A DNA stretch of 64,000 bases from an uncultured Gammaproteobacteria bacterium (GCA_964621085.1 CAZUKY010000001.1:100937-164936), one strand, 5' to 3'. Positions 7,911 through 64,000 are shown, counted from the stretch's first letter. Made by a program: numbers and translations. The notes: a model not told the origin generated them from the sequence alone.

Positions 7911-7970
7911 ACCACCAGGTGCTCACGCGTGCTCTATTAACATCTGATCGTTTTTCCCAAGCCTCCTTGC

Positions 7971-8043
7971 GCCAGCGTAGCTCAGTTGGTAGAGCAATGC
8001 TTTCGTAAAGCAGAGGTCGTGGGTTCGAGTCCCACCGTTGGCT
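7971..8043 (+). tRNA. tRNA-Thr (anticodon CGT)
   Basis: manual fold: acceptor GCCAGCG/CGTTGGC, D-arm GCTC-AGTTGGTA-GAGC, anticodon loop TTCGTAA, T-arm GTGGG-TTCGAGT-CCCAC. Confidence 0.85.
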
Positions 8044-8117
8044 TGGGAAAAACGCTCAGATGGGGCTAACGTACGCGCAGAGGCTGCCCGCAGGACCAAT
8101 CTCGCCGTTGGCTCCAG

Positions 8118-53252: not shown

Positions 53253-53265
53253 ATCACACAAACAT

Positions 53266-53294
53266 CAAAAACCCGGCCTTCCCGCCGGGTTTTT
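53266..53294. terminator. bidirectional terminator aaaaa-cccggc-cttcc-gccggg-ttttt
   Basis: between the convergent coiled-coil gene(+) and dnaJ(-). Confidence 0.6.
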
Positions 53295-53318
53295 GATGTA
53301 TGAATTCTAGCTGAAACG

Positions 53319-54401: not shown

Positions 54402-54481
54402 GTCAATAGCTTCTTAGCTTGTAGCTGATTAGCTCATGAGCTTCCTAAGAAGCTACAAGCTAATCAGCTAAGAAGCTCGCA
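54402..54481 (-). other. structured dnaK-dnaJ intergenic element built of NNNAGCT heptamers forming overlapping inverted repeats
   Basis: units tcttagct/tgtagct/gattagct/catgagct ... agctacaagctaatcagctaagaagct. Confidence 0.4.
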
Positions 54482-56398
54482 TTAATCTTTCTTTGTAAAC
54501 TCAGCGTCGATCGGCCCCTCGTCAGACTGAGACTCCTGGCTGCCCGGCTGCTGTGCTTCGCCTGCGCCGCTGGCAGCGCCCGGTGCCGCTGAGGCGTCCG
54601 GCTGCTGATACATGGCACTGCCGATTTTTGAGATGCTCGCATTCAGATCCTCCAATGAGCGCTTAATCGCCTCGATGTCATCGCCGTCTTTCACCGCTTT
54701 CAGAGCTGCGAGCTTACCCTCCACCTCAGACTTCACATCTGCAGACAACTTATCCCCGTATTCCTTCACCGTTTTTTCCGTCTGATACAATGTCGCCTCG
54801 GCGGTATTTTTCACCTCTATCATCTCACGCTTTTTCTTGTCTTCGTCCGCGTGCAGCTCCGCATCAGTGCGCATGCGCTCGATTTCTTCCTGCGTAAGGC
54901 CAGTTGAGGCCGTAATGACGATTTTTTGCTCCTTGCCGCTTGCCTTATCTTTTGCCGAAACATTCAAGATGCCATTCGCATCAATATCGAACGTAACCTC
55001 GACCTGCGGCACCCCGCGCGGAGCGGGCGGAATGCCGTCAAGGATGAACCGACCCAGCGACTTGTTGTCCGATGCCATCTCGCGCTCTCCTTGCAGCACA
55101 TGGATCTCGACAGAGGTCTGGTTATCCGCCGCTGTTGAAAAAATCTGACTCTTTGAGGTTGGGATTGTCGTATTGCGATCGATCAGCCGCGTCATGACGC
55201 CGCCAAGCGTTTCAAGACCCAGCGAGAGCGGCGTGACATCCAAAAGAAGGACGTCCTTGACCTCGCCCCGCAAAACGCCAGCCTGAACAGCTGCCCCCAT
55301 GGCGACTACTTCATCAGGATTGACGGAAATGTTCGGCTTTTTGCCGAAGAACTTCTCGACCGTCTGCTGCACCAGCGGCATGCGCGTCATGCCCCCCACC
55401 AAGATCACCTCATTGATATCCGAGACCGACAGCCCCGCATCGGCAAGCGCCTTGCGGCAGGGTTCCAACGTCCGTTCGACAAGGCCCCCGACCAACTCCT
55501 CGAGGTTGGCGCGCGTCAGCTTGAGAATCAAGTGCTTCGGACCGGCCGCATCAGAGGTGATAAATGGCTGATTGATTTCTGTTTCGATACTTGAGGAAAG
55601 CTCGTGCTTTGCCTTTTCCGCAGACTCCTTCAGGCGCTGCAAGGCAAGCTGATCCTTGGAAAGATCGATGCCTTCCTGTTTTTTAAACTCAGCGATAATC
55701 CAACCGATGATCAGCTGGTCAAAGTCGTCTCCGCCCAAATGGGTATCGCCGTTTGTCGCCTTTACCTCGACCGTATCCTCGGCAACTTCAAGAACTGAGA
55801 CGTCAAACGTCCCGCCGCCAAGGTCGTACACGACGATTTTCTCATCTTTCTTTTTATTGAAACCATAGGCGAGCGCGGCAGCAGTCGGCTCGTTGATGAT
55901 ACGCTTTACCTCAAGTCCCGCGATGCGGCCCGCATCCTTTGTCGCTTGGCGCTGCGAGTCGTCAAAATATGCCGGAACCGTAATAACCGCCTCGGTGATT
56001 TTTTCGCCGAGCCGCTCCTCTGCGTCGCTCTTCAGCTTCTGTAGAACCATTGCGGAAATCTCCTGCGGCGCGTACTCGTTGCCGCCCATTAAAACCTTGA
56101 CGCCGCTGTCTGACTGCACAATCTTGTATGGCATCAACGTCACGTCGCGCTGCACTTCCGGATCGTCGTACCGGCGGCCGATGAGTCGCTTTACCGAATA
56201 AATGGTGTTTTCCGGATTTGTCACCGCTTGGCGCTTCGCCAGTACGCCGACGAGACGCTCGCCGCTTTTGCTTGTCGCGACAACGGACGGCGTGGTTCGG
56301 TTTCCCTCTTTATTTTCAAGGACTTTTGGCGTGCCGCCCTCAATAACTGCCATGCATGAGTTTGTCGTACCAAGATCGATACCAAGTATTTTTGCCAT
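54482..56398 (-). CDS. dnaK: chaperone DnaK (Hsp70)
   Basis: [16 protein letters not shown], full-length Hsp70 similarity. Confidence 0.97.
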
Positions 56399-56409
56399 AG
56401 GTTTCCAAA

Positions 56410-56982
56410 TTATTTTTTCTCGTTCGAATCACCTTCGCCCGCTGGTTGCGGTTTTTTATTGACAATGACCTTTGCCGGAACGATAAGCGTGCCGTTGTGC
56501 CGATATCCCGCGCTTATCTCTTGCGTTATCACACCCTCGTCCATGTCCTCGCGCCACTCATGACCGACGGCCTCGTGTACGCTGGGGTCAAATGGTGTTC
56601 CTGCCGCATCGGCGATTTCCTCAACACCCGTGCTGCGCAAAATATCCTTCATCTGGCGGTAGATATGTTCGATGCCCTTGATCCATTCGGAGGCCTTCAG
56701 TTCGTCGGGAACGTGCTGAAATGCCTTGCGAAAATTCTCAACAACCGGCAGATACTGCATCAGGGATGCCATCCGCGCAAATGTCGCGAGTTCCGCGGAT
56801 CTTTTTTCCTGCTCGTTTTTAAAGTTTACGTAATCTGCTTTTGCGCGCTTCCACCCATTCAGATACTCATCGCGTTCCTTTTCAAGTGCGCTCTTTTGCT
56901 CTTTGAGGTCTTCTATTTCCTTGAAGGCCCCTTCAAGGGTCATCGTATTCTCATCAGACATAGAGATACCAAACATTAACAA
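56410..56982 (-). CDS. grpE: nucleotide exchange factor GrpE
   Basis: coiled-coil N-terminus plus GrpE C-terminal beta domain. Confidence 0.9.
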
Positions 56983-57677
56983 ACTTCGTGTGTCGCTGCG
57001 AGTGCGTTTTTCAACGTATTCATGAGGGCGATGTTACGGGAATAATTCATGCGCATCGGTCCCAAAATTCCGGCAATGCACTCTTGGCGATTGAATGGGA
57101 AGCGCATGAGAACAGCGCTGCATTGGGGGGAAAAACGGCTTTCCTGGCCGATCCACACCTGCGGCTCGCGCGTTACCGATACTGCAATCCGAGCGACGAG
57201 GGTATCAAGAGTGTCAATGATTCGGGCAAGCGTGCGTCGAAAATCAGCATCCTCGTATTCGGGTTTTTCCGCTGCATAGGAAAGGCCAAAAAAAACTGCT
57301 CCGCTCTTGCGATGCACGAATGCGATCTCCTCGGCATATGCCGAAAGAGTTTGCGCAAGCGTGCGCAGTGCCGCTTCTTCGCTTTCCTGGTCCAACGCGG
57401 CTGCAAGATCCGCGTGCGCGCGTGCGGGAAGACGCGACGGGCGGACATACTGGAGATAAATCCGATATCCCGTCTCTGTCGGAATCCGTCCGGCGGAAAG
57501 ATGCGGCTGATACATGTAGCCCAATTCTTCAAGGGCCGCCATACAGTTTCTGATCGTCGCAGAACTGCATCCCAGCCGGTATTTTTCGACCAGGGTAACC
57601 GATCCGATCGGATGCGCAGATGCGATATACTGCTCGATAATGCGGGTGAGAATATCCCGCTTTCGCTGATCAATCAT
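56976..57677 (-). CDS. hrcA: heat-inducible transcription repressor HrcA
   Basis: N-terminal wHTH RKRDILTRIIEQYIASAHPIGS; operon order hrcA-grpE-dnaK-dnaJ. Confidence 0.9.
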   Translation of the reverse strand: MIDQRKRDILTRIIEQYIASAHPIGSVTLVEKYRLGCSSATIRNCMAALEELGYMYQPHLSAGRIPTETGYRIYLQYVRPSRLPARAHADLAAALDQESEEAALRTLAQTLSAYAEEIAFVHRKSGAVFFGLSYAAEKPEYEDADFRRTLARIIDTLDTLVARIAVSVTREPQVWIGQESRFSPQCSAVLMRFPFNRQECIAGILGPMRMNYSRNIALMNTLKNALAATHEVC

Positions 57678-57693
57678 GCGAGGAGTAGGTGCA

Positions 57694-57720
57694 TTAGCAC
57701 TCTATTATTTTGACTGCTAA
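57694..57720. promoter_or_regulatory. CIRCE operator TTAGCACTC-N9-GACTGCTAA
   Basis: 8/9 + 9/9 match to the CIRCE consensus TTAGCACTC-N9-GAGTGCTAA, 17 nt upstream of the hrcA start. Confidence 0.75.
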
Positions 57721-57729
57721 GCAGCAGTA

Positions 57730-57750
57730 TAAAAAAGCCCGTCCGGGCTG
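57730..57750 (-). terminator. terminator of the upstream TPR-like gene (agccc-gtcc-gggct with T-run on minus strand)
   Basis: located between that gene's stop and CIRCE. Confidence 0.5.
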
Positions 57751-57777
57751 TCAAGAGGAGTATCGATAAGGCGCCCC

Positions 57778-58308
57778 TTATACCGGGCAGCTGTTGTGAG
57801 GAAAGGGCCTGCCGTTTGTAAGCGCCTCGAGAAATTCGGCCGTGCCGAGCCGGTCGTCGGTATCTGCCTGCTGCAGCATGCGATACAGATCCAGTGCCTC
57901 GTCTGTCTTGCCGCGCGCATAGGCGCAATGCGCAAGCCCGATCAGCGTGCGCATGACGCACCGATCATGATAGCTATGCCATCGAAGCCGTTTCGGAAAC
58001 CCGTCCGCGTAATGGCGGGAGAGCTCGTACCGCGCCTCGCCGTACCAGCGGTGCGCTTCCGGAATATCACACGCGCGTAACGCGATCGCACCGAGTCCGG
58101 CATGCGCCTCGGCGATATCAAAAACGGTATGCGCCCCATCGTGCTGCGCTTCCGCAAGAACATCGGTAAAATGCTCTCGGGCCGTCGCATATGCGCCAAT
58201 CTCGAACGCGCCCCACGCTTCTTCGATGCGGCGGCGGTATTTTGTGTTGAGAAAATCAAGAAGCATATGTGGAAAGATTATCTTTCCCTGCCTCCCAGTA
58301 TAGCACAA
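57778..58308 (-). CDS. TPR-like repeat hypothetical protein
   Basis: helical-repeat pattern (AHAGLGAIALRA..., LIGLAHCAYARGKTDEALDLY). Confidence 0.4.
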   Translation of the reverse strand: MCYTGRQGKIIFPHMLLDFLNTKYRRRIEEAWGAFEIGAYATAREHFTDVLAEAQHDGAHTVFDIAEAHAGLGAIALRACDIPEAHRWYGEARYELSRHYADGFPKRLRWHSYHDRCVMRTLIGLAHCAYARGKTDEALDLYRMLQQADTDDRLGTAEFLEALTNGRPFPHNSCPV

Positions 58309-58347
58309 AGAGGGCCCTGCGCCCTCTTGTGTGTGAAAAAATTCGTT

Positions 58348-58695
58348 TTAGGAAACACCGATACCAAACTCAAGCTTTTCTATGCGCTGATCCTGTATAT
58401 CATTTCGCGCCTTCTCATCAAGAGCTATCCGTTCCGTTCTTCGCAGCCACTCAGTGAGAGATGCCTGCTCCGTATCCATTCGCTTCAGAATGACCATCAT
58501 CGCATCTTGAGTTTCGACAAACTTGCGAAACTCAGTCTTTGTCACCATCTGCTCCTCAATGCGCTCAAATCGCTCGTCATGTTCGATCAGTTTCGAGATA
58601 ATCCTATCAAATCTGGCGTCATGATCCTTGAGCTTGGCATTTATGCTTTCGATCACTTCATCATGCGATGCAAGTTTTTGGAGCACGTCAGACAT
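58348..58695 (-). CDS. hypothetical coiled-coil protein
   Basis: 115 aa heptad-rich; the antisense ORF is Arg-rich junk. Confidence 0.4.
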   Translation of the reverse strand: MSDVLQKLASHDEVIESINAKLKDHDARFDRIISKLIEHDERFERIEEQMVTKTEFRKFVETQDAMMVILKRMDTEQASLTEWLRRTERIALDEKARNDIQDQRIEKLEFGIGVS

Positions 58696-58856
58696 AGAAT
58701 ACTACTCATGAGCGAGGAGATTTTCATTGTACGCCTTCACGAACGAAGGGTCAATCGCGCCATACGAATGAAATTCGCTTTAATTAGAGGCTTCTACTGC
58801 GTTATCCACAGACAAAGGAACATACGACTCAAACCATAAAGGAAAATTCAGCATAA

Positions 58857-59648
<792 letters not shown>

Positions 59649-59697
59649 TTCCTCCGCCGACAAAGAGGGGCTCATCCAGATGGGCCCCTCTCTTTTT

Positions 59698-60867
59698 TTA
59701 AATATTTACGGATGTGCACTCGCGCACGGCTTGAGCAACGCGAAGTGCAACGGTTCGGTCCAACGTGCTTGGCATAAATGCTTCCGGAGAAGGATTCGGG
59801 CAACAACCGGCTATAGCTGCGGCTGCGCGCACCTTCATGTCGTCGGTAATTGCGGAAACGCGTGCGTCGAGCGCGCCGCGAAAGATTCCGGGAAACGCAA
59901 GGACATTATTTATTTGATTCGGATAATCGCTGCGGCCCGTTGCCATGATTCGTACCCCGGCCTTCGCCGCCTCTTCCGGCATGATCTCGGGTACAGGATT
60001 TGCCAGTGCGAAAATAATCGGATCGTCTGCCATTGTTGCGATATGTTCTGCCGTCATGATATGAGGCGCGCTGACTCCGATAAAAACATCCCGTCCTCTC
60101 ACGGCGTCCGCAAGACTCCCGCGTATCCCGTCGGGATTGGTAATAAGCGCTAACGCGCGCTTGGCATCCGAAAGGTCCTCGCGGGTCTGCGCAAGAATCC
60201 CCTGCGAGTCAAGAACAACAATATCATTGACTCCTTCTCGCAAAAGAAGGCGCGTAATCGCCGTGCCTGCCGCCCCCGCGCCATTGATGGCAACTTTTAT
60301 TTCCGACAAATTTCTGCCACTTACCGCACAGGCATTGATGAGGCCGGCAAGCACGACGATCGCTGTGCCATGCTGATCGTCGTGAAATACCGGTATGTCC
60401 AATTCCCGCTTGAGCCGCTCCTCGATCTCGAAACAGCGAGGCGCACTGATGTCTTCCAAGTTGATGCCGCCGAAATTCGGGGCAAGCGCTTTGACAATCG
60501 CGATAATCTCATCCGCGCTTTGCGTCGCAAGACAGATCGGAAAAGCATCGACATTGGCGAACTCCTTAAAAAGTACGGCCTTGCCTTCCATAACCGGCAA
60601 TGCCGCCTCCGGTCCGATATTTCCAAGACCCAACACCGCCGAACCGTCGCTGACGACCGCTACCCAATTCCCTCGCGCGGTATAGCGCCATACATTTTCC
60701 CTCTCCTGTGCGATAGCGGAACTGACGGCAGCGACTCCCGGAGTATAGGCAAGCGAAAGATCATCCCTGCTGCCGATCGGCACTTTTGCATACAGCGCGA
60801 TCTTGCCCTTCTTTTGCTCGTGAAGATCAAGCGATCGCTGTGCGGTATCGCTACTCTGATGACTCAT
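59698..60867 (-). CDS. NAD(P)-dependent malic enzyme
   Basis: 389 aa; malic-enzyme N-terminal and NAD-binding domains (VINGAGAAG). Confidence 0.85.
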   Translation of the reverse strand: MSHQSSDTAQRSLDLHEQKKGKIALYAKVPIGSRDDLSLAYTPGVAAVSSAIAQERENVWRYTARGNWVAVVSDGSAVLGLGNIGPEAALPVMEGKAVLFKEFANVDAFPICLATQSADEIIAIVKALAPNFGGINLEDISAPRCFEIEERLKRELDIPVFHDDQHGTAIVVLAGLINACAVSGRNLSEIKVAINGAGAAGTAITRLLLREGVNDIVVLDSQGILAQTREDLSDAKRALALITNPDGIRGSLADAVRGRDVFIGVSAPHIMTAEHIATMADDPIIFALANPVPEIMPEEAAKAGVRIMATGRSDYPNQINNVLAFPGIFRGALDARVSAITDDMKVRAAAAIAGCCPNPSPEAFMPSTLDRTVALRVAQAVRECTSVNI

Positions 60868-60887
60868 AGTTGCAGCAGGCGAAATTA

Positions 60888-61361
60888 TTACACAAGCGGT
60901 TTCTGCGCTTTCGACGCGAAGAATTTTTCTTTCAGTGGGCGCGGAAAAGCAAACATCTCCGGATGCATCGCGTAGGCGATCAAAACAAACAAATAGACGA
61001 CATGGTCATCAACGAACGGATTGCTCTTGATGGGCAAGACCGCAAGCCACATGAGAAGCATCAGAACAGCTCCGCTCCAACCGGCAATGCGCGCATACCG
61101 TCCGATCGCAAGACTCATCCCGATGCCGAACAATCCTGCCAAAAAAAGAAGTTCGACCATGGGATTTCCTGCAAGCCCATTGAACAGCCAAGCGAACGGA
61201 CCCGAGACCTTGGCAAGAAATCCCGCGGTCGCCGAACCGCCCGCAAGCACCGCGCGCTCGGCAGGCGTCGAGATGCCCAAGCCCAAGAGCTTATCCGCAA
61301 ATGCCCAGAGAAAAATGAAGGCCAGCGATATCCGAGCCAGAAAAAGAGGGAGCGTATTCAT
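60888..61361 (-). CDS. DoxX-family membrane protein
   Basis: 157 aa, 4 TM, FADKLLGLG start typical of DoxX. Confidence 0.55.
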   Translation of the reverse strand: MNTLPLFLARISLAFIFLWAFADKLLGLGISTPAERAVLAGGSATAGFLAKVSGPFAWLFNGLAGNPMVELLFLAGLFGIGMSLAIGRYARIAGWSGAVLMLLMWLAVLPIKSNPFVDDHVVYLFVLIAYAMHPEMFAFPRPLKEKFFASKAQKPLV

Positions 61362-62062
61362 AATCGAATAGATACGTTAGTTATATCTTTTTGGAAAAGA
61401 GGAACCATGTCGCTCATTTCCTCTATAGAAAACGGGGTATATGACGCGAAAACCGGATCAAGCGTAATCTCCGGCCGGAATTGCTGAAGATAGAGCGTGT
61501 CAGCACCCGCCAAAGACTTCGCCATCCGCGCAAGCGTCTCAGGCGAGTGGAGCTCCCGCACCAGCGTTACCCGAAATTCGGAGGGGATAGAAGATTGCTT
61601 AATAAGCTCGACACTTTCCGCTACCTTCTCATAGCGAACAGTTAGCCCCATAAGGTCAGTATACCCCATCTCATCGGTTTTGAAATCCATCGCAATATAA
61701 TCAATAAGCTCTTTGTCAAAAAGCGTCCGAACAATCTCGGGACGGGAGCCGTTGGTATCCAACTTGACCAAAAAACCACGGGTCTTGATCTCGCTGACAA
61801 ACTGCTCAAGTCTGGGCTGGAGCGTTGGCTCACCGCCCGAAACCACCACGCCGTCCAACAACCCCTGCCGCTTCTCCAAAAAAGAGAAAAACGTATCCGG
61901 ATGAATGAAGCTCGGCGCATTTTCTCGGATGATTTTCGGATCGACAAGTTCGGGGTTGTGACAGAACCCGCACCGAAAATTGCACCCGGCCGTAAAAACG
62001 ATGCAGGCGATCTTGCCGGGATAATCGATCATCGAATATTGTTGGACGCCTCCGATGAGCAT
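61358..62062 (-). CDS. nrdG: anaerobic ribonucleotide reductase activating protein (radical SAM)
   Basis: CNFRCGFCHN radical-SAM cluster motif; adjacent to nrdD. Confidence 0.85.
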   Translation of the reverse strand: MLIGGVQQYSMIDYPGKIACIVFTAGCNFRCGFCHNPELVDPKIIRENAPSFIHPDTFFSFLEKRQGLLDGVVVSGGEPTLQPRLEQFVSEIKTRGFLVKLDTNGSRPEIVRTLFDKELIDYIAMDFKTDEMGYTDLMGLTVRYEKVAESVELIKQSSIPSEFRVTLVRELHSPETLARMAKSLAGADTLYLQQFRPEITLDPVFASYTPFSIEEMSDMVPLFQKDITNVSIRL

Positions 62063-62286
62063 ACCGTACCCGATTCGATGTCTTCTCTCGTTCCATACCG
62101 CTCGGAAAACGTCTTGTTTGCCGCAACACTTTCCTTAAAATGCGTCCGCGAGACGTGTTCTGACTTCTTCCCGATATTGAAATGGGAGACCGGCCGATGA
62201 TAGCCCATCACCCGCGTCCAGACCTCGCAGCGCGTGCGCCGCGGCATTTTTTGCTCGTGCATATACGTGAATATTAATTTATTCAT
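62029..62286 (-). CDS. nrdD: NrdD C-terminal glycyl-radical segment encoded as a separate ORF
   Basis: RCEVWTRVMGYHRPVSHFNIGKKSE matches the NrdD Gly-radical loop (RVxGY...N.GK..E); overlaps the nrdG start; the homologous part may start at MPRRTR (62247). Confidence 0.55.
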   Translation of the reverse strand: MNKLIFTYMHEQKMPRRTRCEVWTRVMGYHRPVSHFNIGKKSEHVSRTHFKESVAANKTFSERYGTREDIESGTVCSSEASNNIR

Positions 62287-62295
62287 AACAAATTA

Positions 62296-62444
62296 ATGTG
62301 GCTGAGCTTGCGTTTTCGGCGACTTTCGAAGCAAGCGAGCATGGTTTTTCGCCGAAGGCGAAAATCGCGCAGCAGAGACGAGGTGTGCTTCGCGCTGGCG
62401 AAGCACACCGTTCGCCGAAAGCGCAAGCTCAACCACTCACTCTC
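62296..62444. repeat. GC-rich nested inverted repeats between the two nrdD pieces
   Basis: gaggtgtgcttcgc-gctg-gcgaagcacacc (12-bp stem), ttttcgcc-gaag-gcgaaaa, and outer arms gagcttgcgttttcggcga / tcgccgaaagcgcaagctc. Confidence 0.55.
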
Positions 62445-64000
62445 TCACCGCGCCGCTGCCGCACTACGATGCTTTACGCGAAACACCTCATCAAACTGCG
62501 GAGCGCCGATAATGCCATTTTCCGTATCGCAACGGGGACAGAAGTCATACTCGCCAGCCAGATAGCCATGGATCGGGCAGATGGAAAACGTCGGCGTTAT
62601 CGTGATATACGGCAAACGGAAATTCGAGAGGATTTTTCGCACCAGATTCCGGCAGACCTGCGCACTCGAGATCCGCTCGGTCATGTAACAGTGGAGGACC
62701 GTGCCGCCCGTGTATTTTTTCTGCAAGTCATCCTGAAGCGAGAGCGCCTCAAAGACATCATCCGTGTAGCCGACCGGTATTTGAGACGAGTTGGTATAAT
62801 ACGGGGCTTCCTGCGTTCCCGCCTGTATGATTCCCTCAAACCGCTTCTGGTCTTCTTTTGCAAACCGATACGTCGTACCCTCTGCAGGAGTCGCTTCGAG
62901 ATTATACAAATTGCCCGTTTCTTCCTGATACGAAATTAGCCGCTCCCGCATAAAGTCCAAAATTTTTGCCGCGAACTGCTGGCCCCAGTGCGATGTGATG
63001 CTGTCCCGATCGCCCGTAAAATTACGGATCGCCTCGTTTATGCCATTAATCCCGATTGTCGAAAAATGGTTGTGGAGGCTTCCCAGGTACCGGCGTGTAT
63101 AGGGAAATAGCCCGGCATCGATCCATTTTTGAATCTCTTTGCGCTTGATCTCCAGCGAGGCCCGTCCCGCATCCATCAGATAGGAAAGCCGATCGAAAAA
63201 CGCCTCCGGCTTCCCTGCCGTCAGATGACCGATGCGCGCTGCATTGATTGTCACAACACCGATCGACCCGGTCATCTCGGCAGATCCGAACAGTCCGCCG
63301 CCGCGCTTGCGCAACTCCTTCAGATCGAGCTGGAGTCGGCAGCACATCGACCGGACATCGCCCGGATTGAGGTCGGAGTTGATAAAATTCTGAAAGTACG
63401 GCGTCCCGTATTTTGCCGCCATTTCGAAGAGTGGAAGGTTCTTCGGATCCTCCCATCTGAAATCTTTGCCGATATTGTATGTCGGGATCGGGAAGGTAAA
63501 CGCGCGCCCGTGCGCATCGCCGCGCGTCATCACCTCGATGAACGTCTGATTGATCACGTCCATTTCTTTCTGCAGTTCCCCAAAGGTATGCGCAAACTCG
63601 ACGCCGCCGAGCAGCAGCCGGCGGTCTTTCAGATCCTCTGGACAGTCCCAGTCGAGCGTAATATTCGTAAATGGTGTCTGGGTGCCCCAGCGCGATGGAA
63701 TATTGAGATTGAAGGCAAACGACTGCATATTCTGATACACGTAGCGATAGACCTTCTGCTCAACATACCGCTCGCGCGCCTCCTCGCTCCCGAACTGCAC
63801 CCCTGCCGCGCGCAGATCCTCGCGCGTCTCGATCTCGTACTTTTTCACAAACGGCGCCAAATACGTATCAAAACTGGAGAACGCCTGTGCGCCCGCCCAC
63901 TCGTTTTGGAGTGTTCCCAAAAAATTCACCATCTGCGCGACCGCCGACGATAGATGCCGCGGAGCGGTTGACTCGATCTTGTCTGGGACGCCGTTGAATC
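62445..64000 (-). CDS. nrdD: anaerobic ribonucleoside-triphosphate reductase, catalytic body (5' partial; truncated after the Zn ribbon)
   Basis: SMCCRL, C-terminal CPIHG...CPRC Zn ribbon then stop; the frame is open to the window edge (first ATG at 63932). Confidence 0.85.
   Translation of the reverse strand, partial: FNGVPDKIESTAPRHLSSAVAQMVNFLGTLQNEWAGAQAFSSFDTYLAPFVKKYEIETREDLRAAGVQFGSEEARERYVEQKVYRYVYQNMQSFAFNLNIPSRWGTQTPFTNITLDWDCPEDLKDRRLLLGGVEFAHTFGELQKEMDVINQTFIEVMTRGDAHGRAFTFPIPTYNIGKDFRWEDPKNLPLFEMAAKYGTPYFQNFINSDLNPGDVRSMCCRLQLDLKELRKRGGGLFGSAEMTGSIGVVTINAARIGHLTAGKPEAFFDRLSYLMDAGRASLEIKRKEIQKWIDAGLFPYTRRYLGSLHNHFSTIGINGINEAIRNFTGDRDSITSHWGQQFAAKILDFMRERLISYQEETGNLYNLEATPAEGTTYRFAKEDQKRFEGIIQAGTQEAPYYTNSSQIPVGYTDDVFEALSLQDDLQKKYTGGTVLHCYMTERISSAQVCRNLVRKILSNFRLPYITITPTFSICPIHGYLAGEYDFCPRCDTENGIIGAPQFDEVFRVKHRSAAAAR

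Follow-up and report, generated by a model that had tools for sequence, protein, structure and literature searches.

The stretch of DNA analysed here, referred to as the window, comprises 64,000 nucleotides (nt) deposited under an uncultured Gammaproteobacteria bacterium (GCA_964621085.1, CAZUKY010000001.1:100937-164936). At its 3' end the minus strand carries the genes of a class III, anaerobic ribonucleotide reductase (RNR), in which the large NrdD open reading frame (ORF) stops after its zinc (Zn) ribbon, the glycyl-radical segment follows on a separate small ORF, and a block of nested inverted repeats lies between the two. An earlier note on this DNA had offered three explanations: a genuinely split class III RNR, the insertion of a small palindromic mobile element or a very short self-splicing element, and a frameshift or assembly artefact. 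The genes and their principal parts are as follows.

62445 to 64000, minus strand: 3' part of the nrdD gene for the large (catalytic) subunit, with the frame open to the window end (64000) and the stop codon TGA at 62447-62445.
62529 to 62579, minus strand: predicted Zn-ribbon segment C-P-I-H ... C-P-R-C, read from the sequence, wholly on the large subunit and with a C, H, C, C ligand pattern.
62448 to 62528, minus strand: C-terminal tail of the large subunit, 27 codons (DTENGIIGAPQFDEVFRVKHRSAAAAR), its length and loose pattern being common to the Patescibacteria relatives (118 homologue tails).
62029 to 62262, minus strand: small gene for a predicted 77-residue stand-alone glycyl-radical subunit, with other in-frame ATG codons at 62286 and 62247.
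62200 to 62214, minus strand: RVMGY glycyl-radical motif, with the Gly codon at 62205-62203.
61358 to 62032, minus strand: nrdG, the activase of the radical S-adenosylmethionine (SAM) type, with a match to Pfam Radical_SAM and to TIGR02495 NrdG2 (195 bits against a cut-off of 131), publicly called at 224 residues.

The large ORF ends at 62445, its C-terminus reading ...FSICPIHGYLAGEYDFCPRCDTENGIIGAPQFDEVFRVKHRSAAAAR before the stop, and this end lies 27 codons after CPRC rather than the 11 codons after the Zn ribbon given in the earlier note. The full large protein is present in the databases as P0001 (705 residues, 100% identical) and contains an ATP-cone and an NRDD domain. The large ORF in the window matches positions 76-531 of the 562-position Pfam NRDD profile (PF13597) at E=1.7e-144 and 483 bits (cut-off 26.2), P0001 scores 1052 bits against NCBIfam NF006126 (cut-off 548), the large protein scores 438 bits against TIGR02487 (cut-off 326), and in a search of the PDB it matches NrdD structures at 4e-38. 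The finger-loop motif RSMCCRLQLD is found in the large ORF and is invariant in our alignment (A3). This MCCR form of the finger loop characterises group NrdDh4 of subclass NrdDh (PMC4493059), and the enzyme is therefore assigned to that group. The Zn-ribbon pattern C-P-x-H-G-Y...C-P-x-C is likewise invariant among the relatives (alignment A1); in it a His replaces the second Cys (C-P-x-H). The tail that follows the ribbon is weakly constrained, with 33-60 synonymous against 67-104 non-synonymous codon differences. In the large subunits of Patescibacteria (P0002-P0120) the tail has a fixed length of about 26 residues after CPxCD and the loose pattern G-[IV]-x3-5-[RK]-[FY]-D-x-E-x-R-K-x-[YH]-x-S, while the tails of Proteobacterial large subunits are shorter (12-20 residues) and differ from this pattern. 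It may be here that the small subunit docks.

The small ORF occupies 62029 to 62286 in a frame different from that of the large ORF, reads MNKLIFTYMHEQKMPRRTRCEVWTRVMGYHRPVSHFNIGKK... and carries TRCEVWTRVMGYHRPVSHFNIGKK, and a TAA stands two codons upstream of its first ATG (62286); on the end of the large ORF at 62445, on the out-of-frame radical segment and on this stop codon the reading frames bear out the earlier description. By homology the small gene starts at its second ATG (62262), which aligns by eye with the start in the closest related locus, L082, and is also the publicly called one (P0121, 100% identical). The Pfam NRDD profile is matched by the small ORF at positions 531-562 of 562, so that the large ORF, covering 76-531, and the small ORF together make up a complete NrdD from which nothing is missing. 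More than 5000 database sequences are homologous to the small protein, and the best 120 of these are all stand-alone proteins of 54-80 residues. Over ten Patescibacteria loci, 810 synonymous against 200 non-synonymous codon differences were counted in the small ORF, which indicates that the small gene is under strong purifying selection. The core consensus of the small protein, taken over 73 loci, is R.rCEvWTRVMGYhRPv..FN.GKk.Eh.eR..F.E. At least 90% of the small proteins have a Cys eight residues before the radical Gly (R-C-E-V-W-T-R-V-M-G, window 62200-62240), and this Cys might contribute to anchoring the small subunit at the metal site of the large one. A PDB search with a 112-residue C-terminal fragment returned no match.

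The third gene, nrdG, begins with an ATG that overlaps the TGA of the small gene (ATGA at 62032-62029); a longer alternative ORF of 234 residues starts at 62062. The three genes are co-oriented and tightly packed, with the barrel, the finger loop and the Zn ribbon on the large protein and the radical Gly on the small one. An ORF with the radical-SAM motif CX3CX2C lies within 400 nt after the small gene in 69 of 70 loci.

The same division of NrdD is found throughout the relatives. The best 120 homologues of the large protein, 77-81% identical to it and mostly from Patescibacteria, were compared, and 118 stop at the same point (about 704-705 residues or less, with similar tail lengths); only P0062 and P0103 are fused and run through ...CEVWTRVMGY. 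A locus survey in which one genome per species was scanned returned 80 related loci from Patescibacteria, Thiobacillus, Pseudomonas/Stutzerimonas, Aquabacterium, Sutterella, Alphaproteobacteria, Bacteroidota and others. The genes are split in 73 of them, in the order large gene, small gene, nrdG, fused in two (L031 and L063) and undetermined in five. The small ORF lies in frame 0, +1 and +2 relative to the large one in 20, 29 and 24 loci, respectively, and its occurrence in all three frames is the pattern of an independent gene and not that of a frameshift, an intron or a recoding site. A joint alignment of large and small proteins (A2) misplaced the small proteins and was not used. The comparison thus indicates that NrdD is normally divided behind the Zn ribbon in this clade, a conserved condition and not a lesion. 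The earlier note had held that orthologues with the same split and no repeat would point to an ordinary two-gene arrangement; such orthologues exist, and its option of a genuinely split class III RNR is the one that stands.

Cultivated bacteria share the layout. In a tblastn search against plasmid and chromid records, the small gene was found in 163 records (Ralstonia, Cupriavidus, Paracoccus, Bradyrhizobium and others). The RefSeq record of plasmid pBoOO86 of the cultivated Bradyrhizobium ottawaense (L102, 1407-4257) lists a 678-residue coding sequence named "ribonucleoside triphosphate reductase", then a 63-residue coding sequence nrdD, then the activase; the symbol nrdD therefore sits on the 63-residue radical-loop sequence, and the 678-residue catalytic gene has no symbol. 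The same three ORFs are present in Cupriavidus metallidurans CH34 (L103, 1657-4323), for which the genome paper gives NrdDG as Rmet_5137 and Rmet_5139, skipping 5138, the small ORF (PMC2864759). As cited in the same paper, the related strain C. eutrophus H16 cannot complete denitrification without nrdDG (PMC2864759).

What distinguishes the window from most of these loci is the length of the spacer, the distance from stop to start being 182 nt against about 15-50 nt in most related loci. The spacer contains the following features.

62298 to 62436, no strand assigned: nested inverted-repeat element of 139 nt with 25-nt terminal arms, apparently inserted in the ancestral spacer between GAGAGTGA and ATTAATT.
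62382 to 62409, no strand assigned: hairpin within the element, a perfect 12-bp stem closed by a 4-nt loop, arms 62382-62393 and 62398-62409.
62346 to 62364, no strand assigned: hairpin within the element, a perfect 8-bp stem closed by a 3-nt loop, arms 62346-62353 and 62357-62364.
62263 to 62297, minus strand: AT-rich spacer remnant with a small AT hairpin (62273-62297), ending at the start codon of the small gene and collinear by eye with TTAATT...ATTCA..CG.ATATG of L082.

L082, the closest relative, with 80% identity in the large protein and 86% in the small one, is split as well and has a 32-nt spacer and no element. Its spacer reads TAA-ACAAAGAGG-TTAATTATATTATTCAAACGAAT-ATG and that of the window TGA-GAGAGTGA-(139 nt)-ATTAATTTGTTATGAATAAATTAATATTCACGTAT-ATG. 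The flanks are collinear by eye, which argues that the AT-rich stretch is ancestral spacer and that the homologous start is 62262; since L082 is distant (80% amino acid identity) and the flanks were compared by eye, the junction of the insertion is approximate. As L082 is split without an element, the element did not cause the split, and the causal link between repeat block and split that the earlier note had implied falls away. Of the palindromic mobile element that it had proposed, the insertion survives, by comparison with L082, while the role as cause does not, because the block sits in a spacer that was already there.

The inverted-repeat block measures 139 nt rather than the 150 bp first reported; the 12-bp stem, the 8-bp stem, the complementary arms and the repeated TTCGCCGAA / TTCGGCGAA motifs are all present as described. 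The terminal arms (62298-62322 and 62412-62436) are 25 nt long and 92% complementary. The minimum free energy of the element as RNA is -82.4 kcal/mol, against -51.5 +/- 4.2 kcal/mol for dinucleotide shuffles (z = -7.3), and none of 200 shuffles was equally stable. The structure of the element is far beyond chance.

In being short, non-coding, bounded by 25-nt terminal inverted repeats, intergenic within an operon and absent from an empty site in a relative, the block resembles miniature inverted-repeat transposable elements (MITEs) and repetitive extragenic palindromic (REP)-like elements. We read it as a lineage-specific MITE-like or REP-like palindromic insertion, putatively mobile, in a spacer that would originally have been about 30-40 nt long. 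Its insertion would have been tolerated because neither reading frame was touched. Three observations limit the case for mobility. The recurrence that the earlier note had suggested looking for was not seen in the 64-kb window of the 239.6-kb contig, where a BLAST search with 7-nt words found only the element's own arms and no second copy; a scan of Joint Genome Institute (JGI) metagenomes with the arm pattern TGAGCTTGCGYTTTCGGCG gave 19 single-site matches, none with a partner arm, which were taken as chance; and no target-site duplication is visible, the flanks ...GAGAGTGA and ATTAATTT... sharing no direct repeat.

Unrelated insertions have reached the same spacer in other lineages. Two Magasanikbacteria contigs about 95% identical to each other (GCA_021648085.1 and a Logan contig) form a filled and an empty pair: L105 carries in this spacer a 163-nt element (L105 1321-1483), unrelated to that of the window and with 14-nt perfect terminal inverted repeats GGAGTCTCTGATAA...TTATCAGAGACTCC, which L104 lacks. 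The same pair shows a second length difference of about 156 nt, also with inverted repeats, in the spacer between the small gene and nrdG. Strongly structured inserts of 170-220 nt (z -3.2 to -5.4) occupy the spacer between the large and small genes in four Betaproteobacterial, Gracilibacteria and Sutterella loci (L074 3034-3253, L032 3094-3316, L054 3070-3238 and L067 3034-3207) and are unrelated in sequence. The insert of L074 is a long palindrome of ACAGAGAAC repeats. Unrelated inserts in several lineages suggest that the spacer is a permissive landing site for small palindromic elements.

Beyond the element itself, the ends of the two genes can pair with each other over a long range, in an outer stem with the following arms.

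62448 to 62469, minus strand: 5' arm, made up of the final codons of the large ORF and pairing with 62225-62245.
62225 to 62245, minus strand: 3' arm, lying early in the coding sequence of the small gene and directly behind its third ATG (62247-62245).

The duplex of this stem has an energy of -39.7 kcal/mol (z -5.3 against shuffles). In the full fold of 62480-62215, at -129 kcal/mol, both the AT hairpin and the 139-nt element are enclosed by the outer stem, and in this predicted structure the UGA that ends the large ORF faces the AUG at 62247-62245. A ribosome translating the large ORF to its end would melt the outer stem and so expose the initiation region of the small gene, and coupled, stoichiometric synthesis of both subunits may thus survive the insertion, a suggestion to which we attach low confidence. 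It is weakened by the comparison with the relatives, across which the pairing between the end of the large gene and the start of the small one is not conserved: the same test over 72 loci, window included, gave a median z of -0.26, with 7 of the 72 below -2.

These structures bear on the alternative that survives best, namely that the 139-nt block is a functional intercistronic RNA, acting as an mRNA stabiliser or RNase III site, as a leaky attenuator that sets the ratio of large subunit, small subunit and NrdG, or as a scaffold for translational coupling. Such a function would fit the extreme stability of the block (z -7.3), its 25-bp closing helix followed by AUUAAUUUGUU, the outer stem that is specific to this genome (z -5.3 against the median of -0.26) and the long structured inserts that other lineages also have in the same spacer. 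However, those inserts are unrelated in sequence, as expected for opportunistic insertions, most relatives manage with spacers of 15-50 nt, and neither Rfam nor the metagenome scan yielded a homologue, so that the structure has no support from covariation. A consensus scan of 61900-62700 for promoters and terminators found none. We regard a functional RNA as unlikely, though it deserves more weight than any of the alternatives that follow.

A lesion of a once continuous nrdD, broken by the palindromic element or otherwise and leaving a pseudogene and no working anaerobic RNR, is suggested by the position of the element between the pieces and by their different frames. It is nevertheless very improbable, as the same break point occurs without such an element in 73 of 80 relatives from several phyla and in 118 of the 120 closest homologues, L082 is split with a spacer of only 32 nt, and the small ORF appears to be under strong purifying selection.

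Equally improbable is a single fused NrdD produced by removing or skipping the intervening 200-280 nt or so, through a tiny self-splicing intron or through ribosomal bypassing, although fused relatives do exist (P0062, P0103, L031 and L063). The obvious precedents for such an interruption of a coding sequence are the bypass in T4 gene 60 and the group I intron of T4 nrdD (sunY), a classic intron host. In the bypass version the ribosome would leave the mRNA at CGG (62450-62448), the codon just before the UGA of the large ORF, and resume at an in-frame CGG (62241-62239); the two codons match, a stop follows the first, and an unusually stable local fold brings the sites together. The gap, however, would be 209 nt, to our knowledge about four times longer than any known bypass, that of T4 gene 60 being about 50 nt, and the CGG match is trivial given a near-palindromic, GC-rich stem and an Arg-rich leader. 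The self-splicing element of the earlier note fares no better, as relatives need no splicing and a permissive Rfam scan of 61900-62800 returned only three chance hits (E 5-9), with no family and no group I or group II intron model matched even at E<=10. Unlike the T4 cases, moreover, the relatives have two ordinary genes: their small protein has its own start and its own Shine-Dalgarno sequence and occurs in all three frames, the element is absent from them, and L082 without it still has two genes. The related idea that the 245-nt looped-out fold lets ribosomes re-initiate at, or hop to, the small-gene start from the UGA at 62447-62445 is given the same very low credence.

An artefact of sequencing or assembly, or a frameshift through a missed indel, is the least credible explanation of all and has nothing beyond the change of frame to recommend it, since the pieces have between them a TGA, a non-coding spacer of 182 nt and a TAA, the arrangement is conserved, and a 7649-bp Logan contig made from run SRR5011273 with a different assembler is 100% identical to window 63366..56029 (7338 bp), whole spacer included. 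A split intein was also considered and rejected, the tail (12-54 residues, median 17) and the leader (roughly 10-35 residues) being too short and lacking intein blocks, as judged from general knowledge.

Taken together, the locus is very probably an intact three-gene operon whose class III RNR, of the MCCR / NrdDh4 type, is functional and encoded by two genes, the spacer between them holding a MITE-like insertion. By analogy with the architecture of fused NrdDs and with GrcA/YfiD, the small protein would dock non-covalently in the barrel of the large subunit, where other NrdDs hold their covalent C-terminal domain, and NrdG would install the radical on its Gly. Small subunits cleaved by O2 would by the same analogy be exchangeable, so that only the small subunit would need replacement after oxygen cleavage. 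Several points weigh against this reading. The two-subunit function of split NrdDs is a prediction from sequence comparison, and docking and activation by NrdG are extrapolated from fused NrdDs and from the GrcA/YfiD precedent for pyruvate formate-lyase (PFL). An AlphaFold2 model of the fused homologue P0103 (31 sequences) reached a mean predicted local distance difference test (pLDDT) score of 71, with the C-terminal 50 residues below 50 (two rows covering them), and the split site could not be mapped on it. Finally, neither a Shine-Dalgarno sequence nor a promoter could be detected ahead of the small gene, whether in this genome or in other Patescibacteria; in the Proteobacterial small ORFs, GGAG or AAGGAG stands 5-10 nt before the ATG (for example in L024, L050, L053 and L058).

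In its domains the locus agrees with the class III RNR system NrdD/NrdG (NrdDh4, NF006126 / PRK08270): it has the ATP-cone and NRDD domains, MCCR, the Zn ribbon, RVMGY and an adjacent activase of the NrdG2 type. In the NrdDs that have been characterised or crystallised (T4, T. maritima, P. copri) the radical domain is on the same polypeptide, whereas here and in most of the clade it is a separate protein of 54-80 residues. The nearest parallel is GrcA (YfiD), a small stand-alone glycyl-radical protein which the cognate activase activates and which partners a large barrel protein (PMC13450708). PFL, however, keeps its own covalent radical domain, which GrcA replaces after oxygen damage, while the large subunit described here has no radical loop, and the small protein would therefore be obligatory, GrcA-like but not a spare. 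According to a June 2026 review of glycyl-radical enzymes, formate lyases are the only ones known to have spare-part proteins, and the existence of others is undetermined (PMC13450708). The split class II RNR NrdJa/NrdJb of Pseudomonas aeruginosa is similar in having a C-terminal module, including the Zn-finger region, on a second, adjacent gene (PMC9669993), but it belongs to a different RNR class, relies on adenosylcobalamin instead of a glycyl radical, and its second subunit is much larger. A split class III RNR was not described in the literature searched, reviews of RNRs and of glycyl-radical enzymes included; an earlier mention in organism-specific papers is possible. The window locus is thus an ordinary member of its clade, and the architecture of the clade seems to be a class III RNR variant that has not been characterised. 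The layout is routinely present in databases, without a name of its own.

Elsewhere in the window, a tRNA-Thr(CGT) at 7971-8043 on the plus strand is enclosed by 38-nt inverted arms (7926-7963 and 8040-8077, 79% complementary) that form a long stem around it, and the 201-nt fold of this region has a z of -5.4; the stem may be a processing stem or another palindromic insertion. A 248-residue ORF at 58902-59648 on the plus strand has a lipoprotein-like N-terminus followed by long Pro/Val-rich repeats (PVPVPQ...); its DNA has tandem periods of 66 nt and 30 nt with a GC fraction of up to 0.68, and the public call gives no Pfam hit. Two further strong hairpins were noted, one at 53259-53302 with a 19-bp stem and a T-run (CAAACATCAAAAACCCGGC / GCCGGGTTTTTGATG) that gives it the look of a terminator, and one at 54407-54470 with a 26-bp stem.

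For the organism itself, the sequence gives no ground for the doubt that the earlier note raised over a working anaerobic RNR, both parts of the Pfam profile (76-531 and 531-562) being covered, and the enzyme should be scored in this genome as present and intact and not as a pseudogene. Pipelines that require a single full-length NrdD would miss the class III RNR in many Patescibacteria and denitrifiers, and public annotation is confusing in its own right, with the RefSeq symbol nrdD placed on the 63-residue piece and the locus tag of the small ORF skipped in the CH34 paper. For the family as a whole, we propose tentatively, and as something still short of an even chance, that the protein of 54-80 residues is the obligatory radical-bearing subunit of a whole class III RNR clade, spanning Patescibacteria, many denitrifying Proteobacteria and some Bacteroidota, in which the radical would be carried on an exchangeable cartridge that can be replaced without re-making the 700-residue catalytic subunit, an arrangement so far not characterised in any glycyl-radical enzyme. 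The comparative data point to thousands of stand-alone radical-domain proteins tied to class III RNRs, beyond those of pyruvate formate-lyase, and since their carriers include cultivable, genetically tractable bacteria (Cupriavidus, Paracoccus, Bradyrhizobium and Stutzerimonas), the question is directly testable.

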